From a virus (taxonomy: Duplodnaviria; Heunggongvirae; Uroviricota; Caudoviricetes): a stretch of 24,824 nucleotides of DNA. Position numbers: made by a program. Where the stretch lies: positions 1 to 24,824 of the IMG/VR virus record IMGVR_UViG_2534681992_000035. One strand, 5' to 3'. Numbering within the stretch: position 1 is the stretch's first letter; the number at the start of each line of letters is the position of its first letter. Positions 6,001 to 12,000 of this stretch are shown one piece after another.

Positions 6001-9000
6001 GTGGCGAACGTGTGGCGTGTCTGGTACGGATTGCGATAGCGTACACCAGCTTTTTTAAGGGTTGGTACCCAGGCTTTTTTTCGGATCGCATCTGCGTTTG
6101 CCCAAGGAGCGCGAGTTTTCGGATCGCTGAATATGAAGTCGCTCTTTAGCGCCGTGTAGGGCTTTTGTGCCTGAAGAGCCGCCAGCGCTTCGCTGTTCAG
6201 TTGCACTTTGCGGGTGCCGGCTTTTGTTTTGGTGCTTTTGATTACCCCGACTACGCTTGCAGTCTGAACATGCGCGGTGTTGCCGATAAAGTCTATATCC
6301 GTCCAGCGCAACGCGCACAATTCTGAGCTGCGCAGTCCTGTATTAAAGGCAAAGCGAAACAGATTTCGCCATTCCGGGTAATGACAGGCGTCATAGATTG
6401 CTGCCGTCTCCGCTGGTGTAAAAGGATCGACCTCGTAATCATCACTGCCTGGTGTGTTGTCCAATACGTGATACCGGCTGGCGCTGACCAGCGTGACAGG
6501 ATTTATTGTTAACAAACCATCGGTCACCGCTTCATCTATGGCGCTGCGCAGGAATGAAAGATTATTGCGGATAGTTTTCAGTTTTGTTTTTCTGCTGGCG
6601 ATCCAGTTTTTTAGTACTGCAGGTGTCAGTTCTGATACATGAAATTTATGCAATGCTGACAGCGCCGACAGGCATTTTTCATAACCTCTAATTGTCGATG
6701 GTGACAGGTTACGGTTCTGGCAGATAATCAGGTATTCATCCAGGTAAGATTTTATATTTTTGTTTTTTTTCACTCCCCCGAACAACTCCAGCTTTTGGGA
6801 GTTGGGGAAGTATTTTGCATATTCGAAGGTACCATCGATAATCTGATTTTTTATTTCTCCCAGCAGACGCTCGGCGTACTTCACGCCGCGCGCATTTACT
6901 TCCATTCTGGAGAGGGGTTCCCGACACAGAACCCCTTTATATGTAAAAGTGATAACCAGGGTGCTGCCAGTTTTATGCTGGCGAATAGTTACTCCTCTAG
7001 GGAGAGATAATGATCCTTGTTCTTTCTTGCCCATTTTGAAATCTCCATTAAGTCGACCCAACGTTCTTTAACTCCGTCGACTTTTAATACATGAATCCCT
7101 TCTTTCCAGATTCCTCTTTGTATCCGTTTGTTAACGGCATCAACCGTTTCTCCCGCGTCGCGGCAGTAGGTTGATATAGGCACGCAATCCAGTCCCATAC
7201 ATCACCTCACACAACATTCAGCCCACGGCAGTGGCACCACACTTCAAACATTCGTCTCACAATTTCGCGACAGTAGAAACCGTCAACATCTCGCGTCAGG
7301 TCATAGCGATTGCCGTAACGCTGGCGTACCCATAGCTCAAACGCTTTATTCATTCTTTACTTCCTTTTCATGGCACGTAATTTTTTCAGATGAGCTTCCT
7401 GTTCTGTTTCTGCCAGAATTTGTCGGTATTCCTGGTGATCGATCCGTTCAAACGATTCATTAAAATCGTTCATTTTTACCGATTGTGTTTGCCCGTCCAT
7501 TCTTCTGTACAACACGGTGTTGTTTATGCAGCGAACAATTTTTACCGGGTAACCGGCACTGTCGGTATACAGTTGTCCTTGATTAATCAGAGCGAACATT
7601 TTTTCTCCTGCTCTCTGAATAGTGAGAACTTCAGAGTCGTATGTTTGTAGCGGGTTCAATACTGATAATTTCTGCTGAGACAAGCATCCCGGCAAGCCAG
7701 AGCTCTCCGGACAGGTCTTCATCCTGGCATATCAGTTCGCCAATATTAATGGTGGCCATGATATCCGTTTCCCCAGTACGCTTATCCCTGACTTCTTCAT
7801 AAGGTAGCGTTGCGTACAGGCTTTCAATAGCGCAACTGATAACATCCAGTCCGGTCAGATTGCCGCCGACAGTAACTTCGAATGTTTCGCGGTATTCCCA
7901 TAGTCCGAAAGTTAATCGAACGGTTTGTTTTGCCATGCGTCCGCACGACGTCAGATTCGGGTCATAGTTCATTATTTGCGGTTGAGTATTCTGGTTGTTC
8001 ATCTGATTTTCCATTAACCCGGCGGTTTGCCGGGCATATAAGTTATTTAATCTGGATAAATGGTGTATTGGCACCACTGGTCATGTATTGCGGCAGTGTA
8101 CCGTTCCACTTGTTGATGGCTTCCAGTTCCATGACGCCTGGGTTCTGGCGCAGAGCTTCGCCGCGTAAACGAATGGCATCGGCTTCTGCCTGGGCTTTTG
8201 TACGAATCGCATCAGCCTGTCCGGCAGCTTCCGCGCGCAGCATGTTGGCTTCCGCTTCGCGCTGTTTTACTTCCTGCTCGCGTTGCAGGGTTTTCTGGTT
8301 CGCCGTGACTTTGGCATTAATGCTGTCGATAACGGTTGGCGGGTATTCCGGCTTACCCACATATGAGAGGCTCATTACCTGAATACCAATGGGTGTCATT
8401 TCTTCCTGAATGTCTTTGAGAGCTGCATCCAGAAGTTCAGACTTACCGCCGTCGATAAATTTGTCGGTGGTCATTTTGCTGGCCAGTCGGTTGAGTGCAT
8501 CTGCGATCTTCTGGCGCAGGTCTGTGTCGGTAATGTCATCCACGCCTTTGCGGTAGGTCTGAAACACCGTGGTAACTTTGGATGGATCAACTTTGTAGGC
8601 CACACCGATGTGATAGCCGATGGTTGTACCGTCACTCATCTGGAAACTGAACGGTTCATCGTAGGTCTTCATTTGTTTGAAGGTGGGGAAGATATAAACT
8701 TCAGTATTCCAGCCAGTCCAGTAGCGACCAACACCGACCACCTCACCGACGCCTTTGTCGTCGCCCAGTTTATTTACCTTGATGCCAACATTACCTGGTT
8801 CAACGCGATCGCAACCGACAAGGCCAATGGTCGGAAGAACAATGGCTAAAGCAAAAATAACTTTTTTCATCTTTTATCCTTAGTGAAAGAAAGACCCTTG
8901 TAAATGGCATAAATGCAGGGCGGGGTCAGAAACGCCAGTGCAAAGCCGGAAATGACTGCTACCGTATCCTTCATGGATATAAGGAACGGGACGAGTAGTC

Positions 9001-12000
9001 CGTAAATGCATGCGATAATTGCCAGTAAAATTACTATTCTGAAATACAATCTCATTGGTTTGTTGCATCCCGATATTTTTAACTGACTGACAGCGCAATA
9101 AAGAGAATAATGATTTCTGTTAGTGTCAGTACTGTGGCAAGGATTAAAAACAGTTTTACTCTGCTTAATTCACGGTTGCTTTTCATATAAACGGTTAGTA
9201 AAAAAACGGAAGAATTATATTCTTCTTAATATTTAATGTGTCACTGGCGCTTCTGGCATACCATGAGTATTCAGATCGTGAATCATTTCATCCAGAAGGA
9301 GTTCAAGCCCTTCGCGCCCCATAGCAGAGACAATGAAACCATTATCAGGATCTGCGATGAGCATTTTTTGATAGAGAAACAGAACTCGCCCCATGCCTTC
9401 AGCTTCACCATATTTTTCAATAAATCCCCATTCGACATGGTTTTGCAGGGCAATGCGAAGTGGTCTTGGGTATATACTCATGCAACCATGCTTCCCCTTA
9501 TAAATAACTGCGCGATCTGTAGTTCCGTTATCGTTAGGGATATCAATGGTACCGTTCTTGTTTTCCTCTTCACTGATAAACGTTGCCACATACAGCCAGC
9601 GCCATTGAGCAACCTTCATATCGACTGAAAATCTTCCCAGGAATCCGGCATCATCGGCTTCAGCAATACATTGCATGATTCTTAAGCCGTGCCAGTATGG
9701 ATTGTCGTATTCACCATCATTAAGTCGCTGTACGGCCTCAACATAATCAATGGTTGTATTGTCAATTTTTATGCCATGAGCTGTCGCTTCTGGTTTGAAT
9801 TCAAAATTGTTCATAATGTTTGCTCCTTTGCTGGTGGAATAATCGTGTAGCCAGCTCTTTTTGCCATCCACAGAAATGTATCCATGCAGCCAACGAATTC
9901 ATTATCCAACAGATGTTTTGAGTAAATTACTTCACCATTTTCAATGGTTAGCAACACTCTTACTTTTTTATGTGTTATGTTCTGTTGTTTTTCTTTCATT
10001 TATTTATCTCCCATATGCTTTGCGCAAATACAGGTTGGCTATATGAAGATAAGAATCTCCATGTTGCGCAATGAGGCAGGCAGTTTTATACGATGCCTTA
10101 TTTTTCAGGAAAGTCATAACTGAGTTCCCTCTATGAATAAAGGTTGTAACAATCCCCGGCTATAAAACCGTAATAAACATTCAGGGAATATTTATTGTTA
10201 TTGCGCTAATTCTTTTTCGGCAGCAGCTTTTGCATATTCACATGCAAAATTCAGAATTTCGCTGCCAAGTACTTTTGTTTCGTGATTACTGGACATATGT
10301 AATACCTGTGTTGCATGCAATAAATGATAAACATTTACCGCAAATGAATCAGGCTCCAGACAAATGCCTTCGTAATTATCTTGCTGTGAGGTTGTTTCTG
10401 TCATTGCTCCTGAAGTGCATGCGAGCCTGTTTTTGACAATTCTCTTTCCTCTAATCACTATATCGGCAACATCTATTGCCTTTACAACCTCCGGGAGAAG
10501 TTCCTGGTTTGTATAATCAAAGTTATCAACATGGAGAACAGTTATGTTTTCGAACTTTTTCATGGCTTCCTCAGCTGACATGTATGTTCTGTTATATAGT
10601 GAGTCTCAGAAGTGTTTTCATATTGAGACTGTTTCCGCAATGGTTGAGAGAAATGTCCGTATGTATCTTGATGGCAGAAGTGGCGATTATGTCACTCTGG
10701 CTTTCGGCTCCTCAGTTGAAGAACTTCGTGAAATTCGCTCTCAGCTTGTAGAAAAGCGCGGCGATGTTATTGCCCCATGGTATCTGATGAAGCCCGGGCA
10801 ATAGGCCCACCAGTTAACAGCCACATCGGATCGCAACCAAGCGCATTAGCCAGTGGAATGATCTGGCTTGCGGGGACTTCGCAGATACCGCACTCCCAGT
10901 CGTTTATGGGGTCGTTGTAGGTGTGAATCATGCGTGCCAGGTCTGCTTCTGTCAGTCCAACTTTTTTACGTGCGGCTTCTATACGTGTGCCAATGCTTTC
11001 CTCCTGGATGTCTGGCTGATTTACGGTAACAGCAGCAGCGCTATTTTTTTCACTCAGCAGAGAAAGAGGATCGCATCCCAGGACATTTGCCAGGGGGATT
11101 AGCATGCTGATGGTTGGTTCGTATTCTCCACTCTCCCATTGCAGGATAATCTCTTCGTCAAGATCGAGCAGTCTGGCCAGTTCGGTGGTCGTCAAACCGC
11201 AGGCTTCACGTTGGGTGCTAAGGTTAACCATGTATTCAGGCTGTTTTTCAGGAGCAATATCTTGTCTTGAATAAAAAATTGCGTTTTTTACTTCGAAGGC
11301 GTAATCAGTGGCCAAAGCAACTATGGTATCGCCAATTTCACAGTATTCATGGTTATTTGATGTAGCTAATAAATATCCAGCTTCAAAAAGAACGGCGGTA
11401 TTTTTTAGCGCATCCAGTGGGTGCATGGAAAAGCCATTAAAAGTCAGAGTCGGTTTTGCCCTCATCTCATTAACTCCATCTATTTGGAATGAGAGCATAA
11501 TAGAACTTGCTATAAATTATGGCAATAGCAAGTTCTATTTTTTTTGGGGTGATTTTTGTTACCTTATTGATATTTAATAAAAAATATTTCCTTTTTGATT
11601 CAAAGCAAAACTGAGTACCAGAATAAACGCCCGATAATATCAACCTTATCAATACTGGTTTCTTCATCTGGGTATTCGTCACTGTTGTAACTGCGGATAA
11701 TCAATTTTCCACCTGGTCTTCTGTGTAGTTGTTTAATGCGCTTTAGTTGTCCGCCACAACCATCATCTTGTCCAATAGCATACAACTTACCATCGACAAT
11801 TCTTTTGTTGTTGGTGTCAATAGCTACGGTCGTTCCATCAGGGATTATAGGCTCCATACTGTTACCAGTCGCCGGAAAACATAGCACTCCACTTCCGTCA
11901 GAGTTTGCGCCGATCCGACGAAGGGTAGCTTTTGAAAACCTAAGTTTTAATCCATTATGATCTTCGCTAATCACTTTCCCAGTACCACACGCAAACTCAA

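Follow-up and report, generated by a model that had tools for sequence, protein, structure and literature searches.

The early-left region of this prophage was found to encode what, judging from its sequence, is a conserved two-gene membrane module, old and widespread, in which the gene for an SPFH/Band-7 protein with a predicted lipid anchor is coupled to the gene for a small two-helix membrane protein. We put the chance at about even that this lipid-anchored SPFH scaffold and its dedicated membrane subunit fence the inner membrane, conditioning the host for phage development. The structures of SPFH scaffolds (prohibitin, stomatin, flotillin and HflK/C) are well known, and the role of the bacterial ones is debated; with only two genes and carriage in E. 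coli, the module would offer an easy system for testing an outward-facing SPFH cage and why viruses want one. In the window, i.e., the whole 24,824-nucleotide stretch of DNA that was analysed, the pair comprises the following features.

8043..8870, minus strand: SPFH/Band-7 lipoprotein gene (275 aa; RefSeq WP_000755594.1; Pfam, PHROG, AF2 and Foldseek)
8811..8870, minus strand: signal peptide with lipobox LVGC, residues 1-20, Cys20 being the predicted lipidation site (regex and hydropathy)
8247..8807, minus strand: SPFH domain proper, residues 22-208 (Pfam envelope; beta-sheet and helices in the model)
8109..8339, minus strand: long C-terminal helix 178-242 and short helix 244-254 (DSSP on the AF2 model)
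8091..8111, minus strand: signature K254-W255-N-G257-x-L-P260 near the C-terminus (alignment)
8867..9055, minus strand: 62-aa two-helix membrane partner (RefSeq WP_001242069.1; PHROG_1130, E=7.9e-24; hydropathy)
8867..8881, minus strand: coupling junction, with AAGGA at 8877-8881, a 6-nt spacer and ATGA at 8867-8870 (read from the sequence)

The 275-aa ORF matched the Pfam Band_7 model PF01145 over residues 22-208 (E=6.1e-31; 108.3 bits versus a cut-off of 23.6), the match spanning profile positions 2-176 of 176, and PHROG_200 was matched at E=1.8e-114. The AlphaFold2 model of the protein had a pLDDT of 92.7. When this model was searched with Foldseek, 64 PDB chains were recovered at E<=1e-3, every one of them an SPFH protein or major vault protein; the top matches were HflC/HflK (7vhq, E=1.5e-13), prohibitin and erlin, followed by stomatin and flotillin. 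By model score and predicted fold, the protein is a member of the SPFH/Band 7 superfamily (PF01145), and the SPFH fold suggested in an earlier note on this DNA was borne out by both the HMM and the structure search. The C-terminal coiled coil proposed in the same note was recovered in the model as a single unbroken helix of 65 residues (178-242) plus helix 244-254. This segment aligned with the coiled coils of HflK and prohibitin-2, and the two helices would be the counterpart of the coiled coil that forms the walls of SPFH cages. Within the C-terminal signature, W255 was invariant and G257 and P260 were at least 90% conserved among 84 sequences of 30-62% identity.

A lipobox was defined as [LVI][ASTVI][GAS]C following a positively charged n-region and a hydrophobic h-region. 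Regex and hydropathy analyses revealed an MKK n-region, a hydrophobic stretch and then L17-V-G-C20, confirming the lipobox noticed earlier; Asp21-Arg22 come next. By hydropathy, the lipobox segment is the sole hydrophobic segment of the protein. Its Cys was invariant in one family alignment and at least 90% conserved in another, and C-D-R was present at the lipobox in 98 of 120 close (enterobacterial) homologues. The protein is therefore classed, on this motif, as a predicted bacterial lipoprotein (an Lgt/LspA/Lnt substrate), with a putative extracytoplasmic, lipid-anchored topology. An Asp at the +2 position of a lipoprotein is an inner-membrane retention signal, which an Arg at +3 may weaken.

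In the partner, hydropathy placed the hydrophobic helices at about residues 5-26 and 32-52, and the family alignment revealed a conserved P23-x-L-I-S27 turn, with S27 invariant, and a conserved G37. The TGA stop of the partner overlaps the ATG of the SPFH gene by 4 nt (ATGA), with AAGGA lying 6 nt upstream of the ATG, and the annotations of P88 and phiE125 have an identical 4-nt overlap. A 62-aa ORF with two hydrophobic helices and an ATGA overlap agrees with the coupled small membrane partner described before; its description as NfeD-type, however, was not upheld. What defines NfeD is an OB-fold domain at the C-terminus (PF01957), for which 62 aa with two TM helices leave no room. HMM searches gave no match to NfeD (Pfam) at E<=1 for the partner or 20 homologues, the partner had no Pfam match, and its family profile had no meaningful match in the PDB to YbbJ (8z5g) or any other chain. 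NfeD identity was rejected because the partner is too short for the OB-fold and is without a Pfam or PDB match. The partner family appears to be undescribed so far; PHROG places PHROG_1130 in the category 'moron, auxiliary metabolic gene and host takeover'. The small ORF was left unannotated in the phiP27 and P1-like records, and so was missed in several reference phage records.

The pairing of the two genes was examined by profile search. The 80 independent loci searched span many bacterial phyla, with Proteobacteria, Leptospira and Bacteroidota among the sources. In 68 of them the immediate upstream neighbour of the SPFH gene, in the same orientation, was a partner homologue, and the profile had no match at E<=1e-3 elsewhere in those 80 loci. 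With 68 loci matched and none off-target, the pairing is far beyond chance. Four further loci contained a diverged hairpin bearing the same motif. Moreover, in about 20 of 150 family representatives (50% clustering), partner and SPFH protein form one in-frame ORF in the order two TM helices, signal helix and SPFH domain, and the lipobox Cys was kept in all 19 fusions inspected by eye; in one representative (P0169), the partner lies at the C-terminus. A model of the natural fusion P0162 (pLDDT 89.6) placed three helices N-terminal to the SPFH domain. Among 131 neighbouring ORFs, no third conserved component was found, and no NfeD was among the recurrent families. Between this prophage, P88 and a P1-like phage, the mature SPFH core shows 98-99% identity, yet the partners only 22-24%; if the two proteins touch, they would therefore have to do so through very few conserved residues, or through the co-varying signal peptide or the C-terminal tail.

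HflK and HflC of E. coli (7vhq, 7wi3 and 9cz2) share the SPFH domain and the long coiled-coil helix with the phage protein, and headed its PDB matches in both sequence (E=2e-4) and fold (E=1.5e-13). They also have, as predicted for the phage protein, an N-terminal membrane anchor and a periplasmic bulk. However, the identity is only 16-21%, the anchor is a transmembrane helix in HflK/HflC and a predicted lipid in the phage protein, and the phage system consists of one SPFH gene with its own 2-TM partner, not a K/C heteromer. The equivalog models for HflK (TIGR01933, 23.4 bits versus a cut-off of 159.4) and HflC (TIGR01932, 25.5 versus 134.4) failed, and there are no two adjacent SPFH paralogues; on these grounds the protein was not placed among the HflK/HflC modulators of FtsH. 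Because the resemblance to HflK/C is of the kind common to SPFH proteins in general, it does not imply FtsH binding. HflK/C, prohibitin and erlin work with membrane proteolysis machinery. These nearest solved relatives all face away from the cytoplasm.

Two other groups invite comparison. In SPFH-NfeD operons (QmcA-YbbJ, 8z5g; YqiK-YqiJ; FloA/FloT with NfeD2/YuaF) the operon logic is the same, the SPFH gene being translationally coupled, there and in the phage module, to a gene for a small membrane protein, sometimes fused. Yet the phage partner is without the OB-fold that defines those partners, and the export predicted for the phage SPFH protein contrasts with QmcA, YqiK and the flotillins, which face the cytoplasm. 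SPFH4 prokaryotic prohibitins and eukaryotic prohibitin/erlin are likewise without NfeD, predicted to be non-cytoplasmic, highly diverse and laterally transferred. Related phage proteins carry the labels 'prohibitin family' or 'SPFH_prohibitin', and PHB1/2 and erlin ranked at the top beside HflK/C in Foldseek. The absence of NfeD and the predicted outward topology are consistent with SPFH4, to which the module is likened by description. As published, SPFH4 has no conserved operon partner and no studied member (Hinderhofer et al. 2009, PMC2636767), in contrast to the conserved 2-TM partner present here.

The genomic context was then considered. The pair, which has 100% identity to a phiP27-like prophage of E. 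coli 2013C-3264, lies between int/xis and an XRE-type repressor on the same strand, so that the 'early-left' position assigned to it earlier holds. The neighbours of the single SPFH gene are those for the 62-aa hairpin protein and a DUF5406 protein. In the P2-like phage P88, the pair lies between cox and a replication gene, and in a P1-like phage between dmt and ban, in each case on the same strand; in P1, the dmt-ban interval is the C1-controlled ban operon. This locus is variable in P1-like phages and holds upl/plp and tciABC in P1. Judged by gene order, three unrelated temperate phage types would have the pair in an early operon under repressor control, oriented in the same direction as the operon, and the pair appears to be made from that operon; expression would therefore be expected at infection or induction, not in the quiescent lysogen. 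Consensus scans, which are weak evidence, detected no sigma-70-like promoter on the minus strand between 10375 and 8043 and no canonical terminator around the module. With no promoter of its own, the pair is probably silent in the repressed prophage. Two hairpins were predicted by RNA folding.

8017..8035, minus strand: GC-rich hairpin without a U-tract, just past the SPFH stop (-14 kcal/mol, z=-2.7)
9200..9225, minus strand: weak AT-rich hairpin followed by U7 (-4.9 kcal/mol, z=-1.8)

The first was not called by the terminator scan, and the second, which separates the preceding gene (9233-9871) from the module, is too GC-poor for that scan. A moron, in the sense of autonomous prophage cargo, was considered and set aside, as the consensus scans (weak evidence) gave neither an own promoter nor a terminator.

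Homologues were present in 414 phage records, temperate and virulent, including Vequintavirinae 4MG, Bruynoghevirus DL54, phiCbK and the crAss-like cr126_1, which we take to belong to virulent lineages. In Rhodanobacteraceae, the pair is formed by syntenic chromosomal genes with housekeeping neighbours, and the module occurs in 691 of 5426 complete E. coli genomes (about 13%). Environmental bacteria and phages of non-pathogens also carry it in abundance. At the nucleotide level, the SPFH core is 86-91% identical among phiP27-like, P2-like, P1-like and phage-plasmid backgrounds, and lambdoid, P2-like, P1-like and virulent phages are judged to exchange the module as a cassette. Given the virulent-phage homologues and the syntenic Rhodanobacteraceae gene, a lysogeny-specific role is unlikely. 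This bears directly on the idea that a phage mimic of HflK/C tunes the degradation of CII/CIII-type regulators by FtsH and so sets the lysis-lysogeny decision. HflK and HflC are among the best sequence and fold matches, the periplasm-facing topology class is common to both, and the early-left operon is where lambda keeps its FtsH inhibitor cIII. However, homologues occur in phages without a lysogenic cycle (4MG, DL54, phiCbK and cr126_1) and the pair is syntenic on Rhodanobacteraceae chromosomes; in addition, the equivalog models failed, the SPFH gene is alone instead of forming a K/C pair, and the prophage showed no evident CII-like gene rightward of cro. We regard this explanation as decidedly unlikely, although the same guess has been published for Burkholderia phage CSP3; there, a phage HflC driving lysogeny was proposed in genome-announcement papers without tests (PMC10269572).

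The mobility of the pair between unrelated phages has also to be weighed as a possible sign of superinfection exclusion or defence, with an inner-membrane cage and hairpin blocking genome entry or triggering abortive infection. Such a function would suit an envelope-located pair with no replication or morphogenesis role, the PHROG category of the partner and the occupied, variable dmt-ban locus of P1-like phages; nor are virulent carriers an obstacle, since virulent phages also make early exclusion proteins, such as Imm and Sp of T4. On the other hand, neither protein nor four neighbours matched any of the 5027 models of PADLOC-DB v2 at E<=0.1, a pair without its own promoter is probably silent in the repressed prophage, and many bacteria carry it as a syntenic, core-like gene whose neighbours are housekeeping genes and not those of defence islands. 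We consider exclusion or defence unlikely.

Spread over lytic and temperate phages, many hosts and free-living bacteria would equally fit a generic membrane function, in which the scaffold steadies the energised inner membrane until programmed lysis, with no specific protein target. The stresses named for this reading are holins, pinholins, secretins and abortive-infection pores. In cr126_1, the SPFH gene lies near a peptidoglycan hydrolase gene, two genes upstream of it, but linkage to lysis genes was inconsistent across the phages compared. In bioRxiv 10.64898/2026.02.06.704340 and PMC10434171, bacterial SPFH proteins are repeatedly tied to membrane stress; the proteins cited there face the cytoplasm, unlike the phage protein as predicted. 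A lysis-timing helper of this kind, which overlaps the preferred explanation and differs from it only by the absence of a target, is in our estimate also unlikely.

In the preferred explanation, an SPFH scaffold of the prohibitin/HflK/C type would be exported and lipidated at Cys20, with Asp at +2 keeping it at the inner membrane, on the periplasmic side. All full-length SPFH proteins solved so far suggest, by analogy, that the 65-residue helix probably drives assembly of a ring or cage over a membrane patch. The 62-aa protein would serve as the dedicated membrane-embedded subunit, a helical hairpin whose two termini would both be cytoplasmic and whose P-x-L-I-S turn at the periplasmic surface would meet the lipid-anchored N-terminus of the SPFH domain; though not NfeD, the hairpin may fill the role of NfeD proteins in stomatin/flotillin operons. 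The likeliest product, on that same analogy, is a ring or cage of SPFH protein that is anchored by lipid to the outer face of the inner membrane and has a membrane subunit of its own. Expressed from the early operon at infection or induction, the cage would most likely fence off inner-membrane proteins or lipids, leaving the host membrane conditioned for phage development, and an FtsH-type quality-control protease would, by analogy, be the leading candidate for the fenced protein. Lipidation, inner-membrane location, oligomerisation, the timing of expression and any target are what we infer in this scheme; its fold, lipobox, coupled genes, conserved pairing, fusions and distribution are what the analysis showed. 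A bolder proposal, that an ancient, undescribed SPFH system with a hairpin replacing NfeD, captured by phages of every lifestyle, gives them a cage of their own on the outer face of the host cytoplasmic membrane, which traps a host membrane machine (FtsH being the prime candidate) and rewires membrane proteostasis during infection, is conceivable and rather doubtful; if true, it would give a viral SPFH cage a defined target for the first time.

No experimental studies of this SPFH-partner family were found in the searchable literature. A putative homologue, the prophage-encoded 'HflK/C-like' SPFH protein PM0222 of Pasteurella multocida (25-35 kDa), was found both in cultures that had not been induced and in outer-membrane vesicles (OMVs), induces TNF-alpha and IL-1beta via TLR1/2, and attenuates virulence in mice when deleted (PMC9872710). 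If homologous, its detection speaks against expression confined strictly to the early lytic phase and against strict retention at the inner membrane. This precedent, together with the origin of the window in a human STEC isolate, could point to a lysogenic-conversion or virulence factor, i.e., a prophage lipoprotein released in OMVs that acts on the animal host via TLR1/2. However, TLR2 agonism is common to any lipoprotein, so that the SPFH fold and the conserved partner would be left unexplained, and the module abounds in environmental bacteria and phages of non-pathogens; we hold this to be very unlikely.

Finally, the SPFH gene is already annotated. The L05 protein of phiP27 is 98.5% identical to the SPFH protein, the region being 94.5% identical in DNA, and P88 gp12/gp11 are the same genes, annotated as 'lipoprotein' and 'membrane protein'. 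The phiP27, P88, PHROG_200 and PHROG_1130 records give only the labels lipoprotein, 'putative serine protease' or hypothetical, and the 'serine protease' label, which many homologues carry, is an error inherited from older annotation.

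The 275-aa ORF at 8043-8870 on the minus strand matched Pfam Band_7 (E=6.1e-31, residues 22-208) and PHROG_200 ('lipoprotein'; E=1.8e-114), and the gene itself is already annotated. An AlphaFold2 model, computed with 84 homologues of 30-62% identity as input, had a mean pLDDT of 92.7 and comprised an N-terminal helix, a beta-rich SPFH domain, a continuous helix spanning residues 178-242 and a short helix at 244-254, along with a less confident tail. When this model was compared with the PDB by using Foldseek, the top matches were SPFH proteins only, namely HflC/HflK (7vhq, E=1.5e-13), prohibitin, erlin, stomatin, flotillin and QmcA-YbbJ (8z5g, E=6.7e-8). 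The earlier note had described an SPFH-like protein with a lipobox and a C-terminal coiled coil. The SPFH fold was confirmed by these analyses, the coiled coil corresponds to helix 178-242, and the N-terminus (MKKVIFALAIVLPTIGLVGC) is a textbook lipoprotein signal in which the lipobox LVGC is followed by Asp-Arg; hydropathy revealed no second hydrophobic segment beyond this signal. In GenBank, homologues from phiP27 and Stx phages are labelled 'serine protease' or 'putative serine protease' (AJ298298, LC5678xx, MH160767 and FO818745; matched phage records H1, H3-H12, H17 and H23). This identity was rejected, as the whole protein consists of SPFH domain plus coiled coil. Because nothing in the sequence or the model supports protease activity, the name looks like a propagated mislabel, which presumably stems from the old designation 'membrane protease subunit, stomatin/prohibitin homologue'.

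Lipoproteins by definition lie outside the cytoplasm, and in Enterobacterales Asp at position +2 is the classical Lol-avoidance (inner-membrane retention) signal. Cys-Asp-Arg was present in 98 of 120 close SPFH homologues, and no other residue pair occurred among those matching the pattern. We take the predicted topology to be that of the class comprising HflK/C, prohibitin and erlin, and the opposite of that of QmcA, YqiK and the flotillins. Homologues in monoderm-assigned contigs also fit with a protein acting on the outside of the cytoplasmic membrane.

The proposal that a small membrane protein is translationally coupled to the SPFH gene was also borne out. The 62-aa ORF at 8867-9055 (minus strand) encodes two hydrophobic helices with positive charges at both ends and matched PHROG_1130 ('membrane protein') at E=7.9e-24; its TGA stop overlaps the SPFH start codon (ATGA), and AAGGA lies 6 nt 5' of that ATG. 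In the P2-like phage P88, an annotated 67-aa membrane protein gene has a 4-nt overlap with the SPFH 'lipoprotein' gene, and in a P1-like phage a 78-aa two-helix ORF without annotation overlaps the SPFH gene. Both align with the partner in the window through a common RLY...LP-x-(L/M)-IS...T...G...P pattern. The small ORF is unannotated in phiP27 as well as in the P1-like record.

An HMM built from 25 partner sequences was run against 80 SPFH loci from one-genome-per-species contigs, covering all stop-to-stop frames of 30 aa or more. Matches at E<=1e-3 were obtained in 68 of the 80 loci; every match lay on the same strand immediately upstream of the SPFH gene, and none was found elsewhere in these loci. 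The positive loci were labelled Enterobacterales, Xenorhabdus, Morganella, Rhodanobacteraceae, Leptospira, Bacteroidales and Saprospirales, together with MAGs labelled Eubacteriaceae, Iamiaceae and Dependentiae, whose labels are to be taken cautiously. Four of the 12 HMM-negative loci (Sutterella, Cupriavidus) had a short two-helix ORF with a P-x-L-x-S/N turn at the same position, and the truly different ones belonged to the most distant homologues (32-35% identity; Bacteroidota and Ignavibacteria/Kapaibacterium). The partner-family alignment shows an invariant Ser27 and nearly invariant Pro23 and Gly37, with the conserved turn at the periplasmic end of helix 1 in the predicted topology. These combined sequence data strongly suggest that the 62-aa ORF is a genuine partner of the SPFH protein. 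At two loci, L085 (Shigella flexneri SFBU1023, 3191-4001) and L086 (E. coli ECMA0423, 3182-4001), about 0.8 kb containing no long ORF separates the partner and SPFH genes, so that translational coupling is broken; in E. coli C5, an IS110-family transposase lies inside the matched stretch.

The designation of the partner as NfeD-type, on the other hand, did not survive. The defining feature of NfeD proteins is an OB-fold domain at the C-terminus; the partner is 62 aa of membrane helix. No NfeD match was obtained with Pfam for the partner and 20 homologues even at E<=1, and a partner-family profile returned nothing meaningful from the PDB, YbbJ of the QmcA-YbbJ complex included. Among 131 ORFs around 21 distant loci, Pfam likewise identified no NfeD and no recurrent neighbour, only scattered housekeeping families, and thus no third conserved gene. 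The module therefore resembles SPFH-NfeD operons in its operon logic but fails on NfeD membership, and of the original interpretation the SPFH fold and a real small partner stand, without NfeD. According to Hinderhofer et al. (PMC2636767), the HflK/C and 'p-prohibitin' (SPFH4) branches lack NfeD, and no bacterial SPFH4 member had been studied. The present family probably belongs to the SPFH4 branch, since its relatives carry the labels 'prohibitin family' or 'SPFH_prohibitin'.

An exhaustive HMMER search over 1.84 billion cluster representatives recovered 3008 relatives of the SPFH protein (228 with E<1e-30). Among the 150 best relatives, about 20 had an N-terminal extension of 60-100 aa with two hydrophobic helices and the partner's own P-x-L-(I/V)-S motif and, judged by sequence, are natural in-frame fusions of partner and SPFH protein; in one representative, P0169, the hairpin is placed C-terminally instead. 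The lipobox Cys was retained just ahead of the SPFH domain in all 19 fused sequences inspected, and it was at least 90% conserved in the mixed alignment. The AlphaFold2 model of a natural fusion, P0162 (pLDDT 89.6), had helices at 2-27, 32-52 and 57-73 followed by the SPFH domain. A self-consistent topology would have the hairpin running in-out-in and the signal helix then taking the SPFH domain out; such fusions may be cleaved at the lipobox into the same two products.

When the module in the window (8043-9055) was compared with those of P88 (L002, 3467-4497) and the P1-like phage (L003, 3468-4512), the mature SPFH core (residues 21-250) was 98-99% identical at the protein level among all three, but the signal peptide was only 43-57% and the last 25 residues only 69-72% identical, and the partner of the window prophage shared only 22-24% identity with the other two. 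This pattern indicates a mosaic cassette in which recombination has occurred within the SPFH gene. One tail variant is shared by P88 and the P1-like phage, whose partners have 40% identity; the SPFH tail variant co-varies with partner type in the three examples. Either few conserved residues suffice for partner recognition, or the partner works with the co-varying SPFH ends. In reference P1 (L171, NC_005856), the dmt-ban interval, which also holds tciABC and tRNAs, contains upl (63 aa) and then plp (125-aa putative lipoprotein) at 11473-12042 on the opposite strand, another pair of small protein and lipoprotein at the variable locus that holds partner and SPFH genes in P1-like variants.

Bases 7300-9900 matched the chromosome of E. 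coli 2013C-3264 (NZ_CP027544), a human stool isolate, at 100% identity; for the region, identity was 94.5% with phage phiP27 and about 91% with a group of Stx2-converting phages. The RefSeq annotation gives the following order.

Gene order around the module (RefSeq annotation)
5862-7034, minus strand: tyrosine integrase
minus strand: small excision-region genes, then a DUF4222 gene and a DUF5406 gene
8043-8870, minus strand: SPFH gene
8867-9055, minus strand: 62-aa partner gene, then several hypothetical genes
10767-12346, minus strand: two HTH/XRE regulators
plus strand: divergent cro-like gene and replication genes

Given this order of integrase, module and XRE regulators, all on the minus strand, 'early-left region of the prophage' is a fair description. 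No sigma-70-like site was found on the minus strand from 10375 to the SPFH stop, and no canonical terminator at the module; a weak AT-rich hairpin with U7 (9200-9225) precedes it, and after it comes a GC hairpin (8017-8035) that lacks a U-tract. A moron architecture, with its own promoter or terminator, was thus not found. The pair is flanked by cox and the replication endonuclease gene in P88 and by dmt and ban in the P1-like phage, in both cases on the same strand; in P1, the dmt-ban interval is transcribed from C1-controlled ban promoters. Because the module is co-directional within a repressor-controlled early operon in three unrelated temperate phages, we infer early lytic expression from its position.

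The module is flanked by a DUF5406 protein gene (7631-8077, minus strand; PHROG_3409; RefSeq start 8003) and a gene of the function-unknown family PHROG_1515 (9233-9871, minus strand), which accompany it in phiP27-like and Stx2 phages and are absent beside it in P88 and P1-like phages. The 178-nt gap upstream of the partner gene contains an unannotated 35-aa ORF (MKSNRELSRVKLFLILATVLTLTEIIILFIALSVS; 9079-9186, minus strand) with a single hydrophobic helix and no obvious ribosome-binding site. Its frame is open in most of 69 tblastn matches to related loci, and the commonest variants differ by conservative substitutions; as the loci are closely related (88-100% identity), this conservation is weak evidence.

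By tblastn, SPFH homologues were detected in 414 of 50,697 phage records, 377 of which cover at least 80% of the protein. Carriers include Pseudomonas, Erwinia, Klebsiella, Escherichia, Burkholderia, Caulobacter, Salmonella and Prevotella phages, many of them from virulent lineages (Vequintavirinae 4MG, Bruynoghevirus DL54, phiCbK, crAss-like cr126_1 and Erwinia phage Fifi011). The partner gene immediately precedes the SPFH gene in Fifi011 (E=7e-16) and cr126_1 (E=1e-6) and is one gene off in 4MG and two genes off in DL54; in phiE125 the candidate is weak and diverged. The region was present in 691 of 5426 complete E. coli genomes, at 714 places on chromosomes and 199 on plasmids. In 20 Rhodanobacteraceae loci, each from a different species, the flanks were shared over more than 1 kb, and the pair there is a syntenic chromosomal gene, not prophage cargo. 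A prophage-only distribution is ruled out by these chromosomal copies together with the virulent-phage copies. From this distribution we conclude that the pair is a widely distributed cellular module acquired by phages of all lifestyles, which argues against a lysogeny-specific function.

In the mechanism that we propose, the SPFH protein would assemble into a lipid-anchored ring or cage at the periplasmic side of the inner membrane. The hairpin protein would serve as its membrane subunit, at the 1:1 ratio implied by the natural fusions. Produced early in infection, the module would fence off a patch of membrane and the proteins within it. We regard the structural part of this proposal as likely; for the whole, with inner-membrane proteins being fenced off while lytic development proceeds, we put the chances at about even. 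A less likely rival reading is generic membrane stabilisation. That FtsH is the fenced protein seems doubtful, the idea being an analogy with HflK/C, to which the likeness is generic (16-21% identity, far under equivalog cut-offs). Control of lysis-lysogeny through FtsH, as raised in the earlier note, has a parallel in a Burkholderia phage paper that speculated that a phage 'HflC' could favour lysogeny (PMC10269572); as a general function it is less likely, given the carriage by phages of all lifestyles. The same note had offered superinfection exclusion; PADLOC gave no match to a known defence system, and in the literature searched on SPFH proteins in relation to phage defence, superinfection exclusion or the lipobox, no study of this family's function turned up. 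A role as a virulence-factor lipoprotein seems unlikely; its precedent would be PM0222 of Pasteurella multocida, a prophage-encoded 'HflK/C-like' protein of 25-35 kDa and possible relative, which is reported to occur in uninduced cells and OMVs, to stimulate TLR1/2 and to be required if mice are to suffer full virulence (PMC9872710). Within searchable material, the hairpin partner and its conservation, its natural fusions to the SPFH protein and the wide range of phage carriers all seem to be undescribed.

An Rfam search found no RNA family in or adjoining the module. Elsewhere in the window, isrK (64 and 62 bits) occurs twice in tandem, with a C4 antisense RNA (85 and 75 bits) behind each copy, at 13933-14121 and 14589-14774 (plus strand), inside two tandem 'ash family' genes (~13878-15193); the arrangement constitutes a duplicated P4/P1-type antisense immunity module. 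At 23450-23724, an STnc100 sRNA (190.7 bits, plus strand) directly adjoins an AgvB anti-GcvB sRNA (minus strand) whose 56.6 bits barely reach the gathering score. The antiterminator Q family gene (19084-19430, plus strand) is frameshifted according to RefSeq, and the prophage may therefore be defective for late-gene expression. The autotransporter gene ypjA/ehaD (2287-5542, plus strand) is annotated as a pseudogene without its C-terminus and is followed, just ahead of the prophage integrase, by a separate 108-aa beta-barrel fragment; this disruption adjoins the prophage end.
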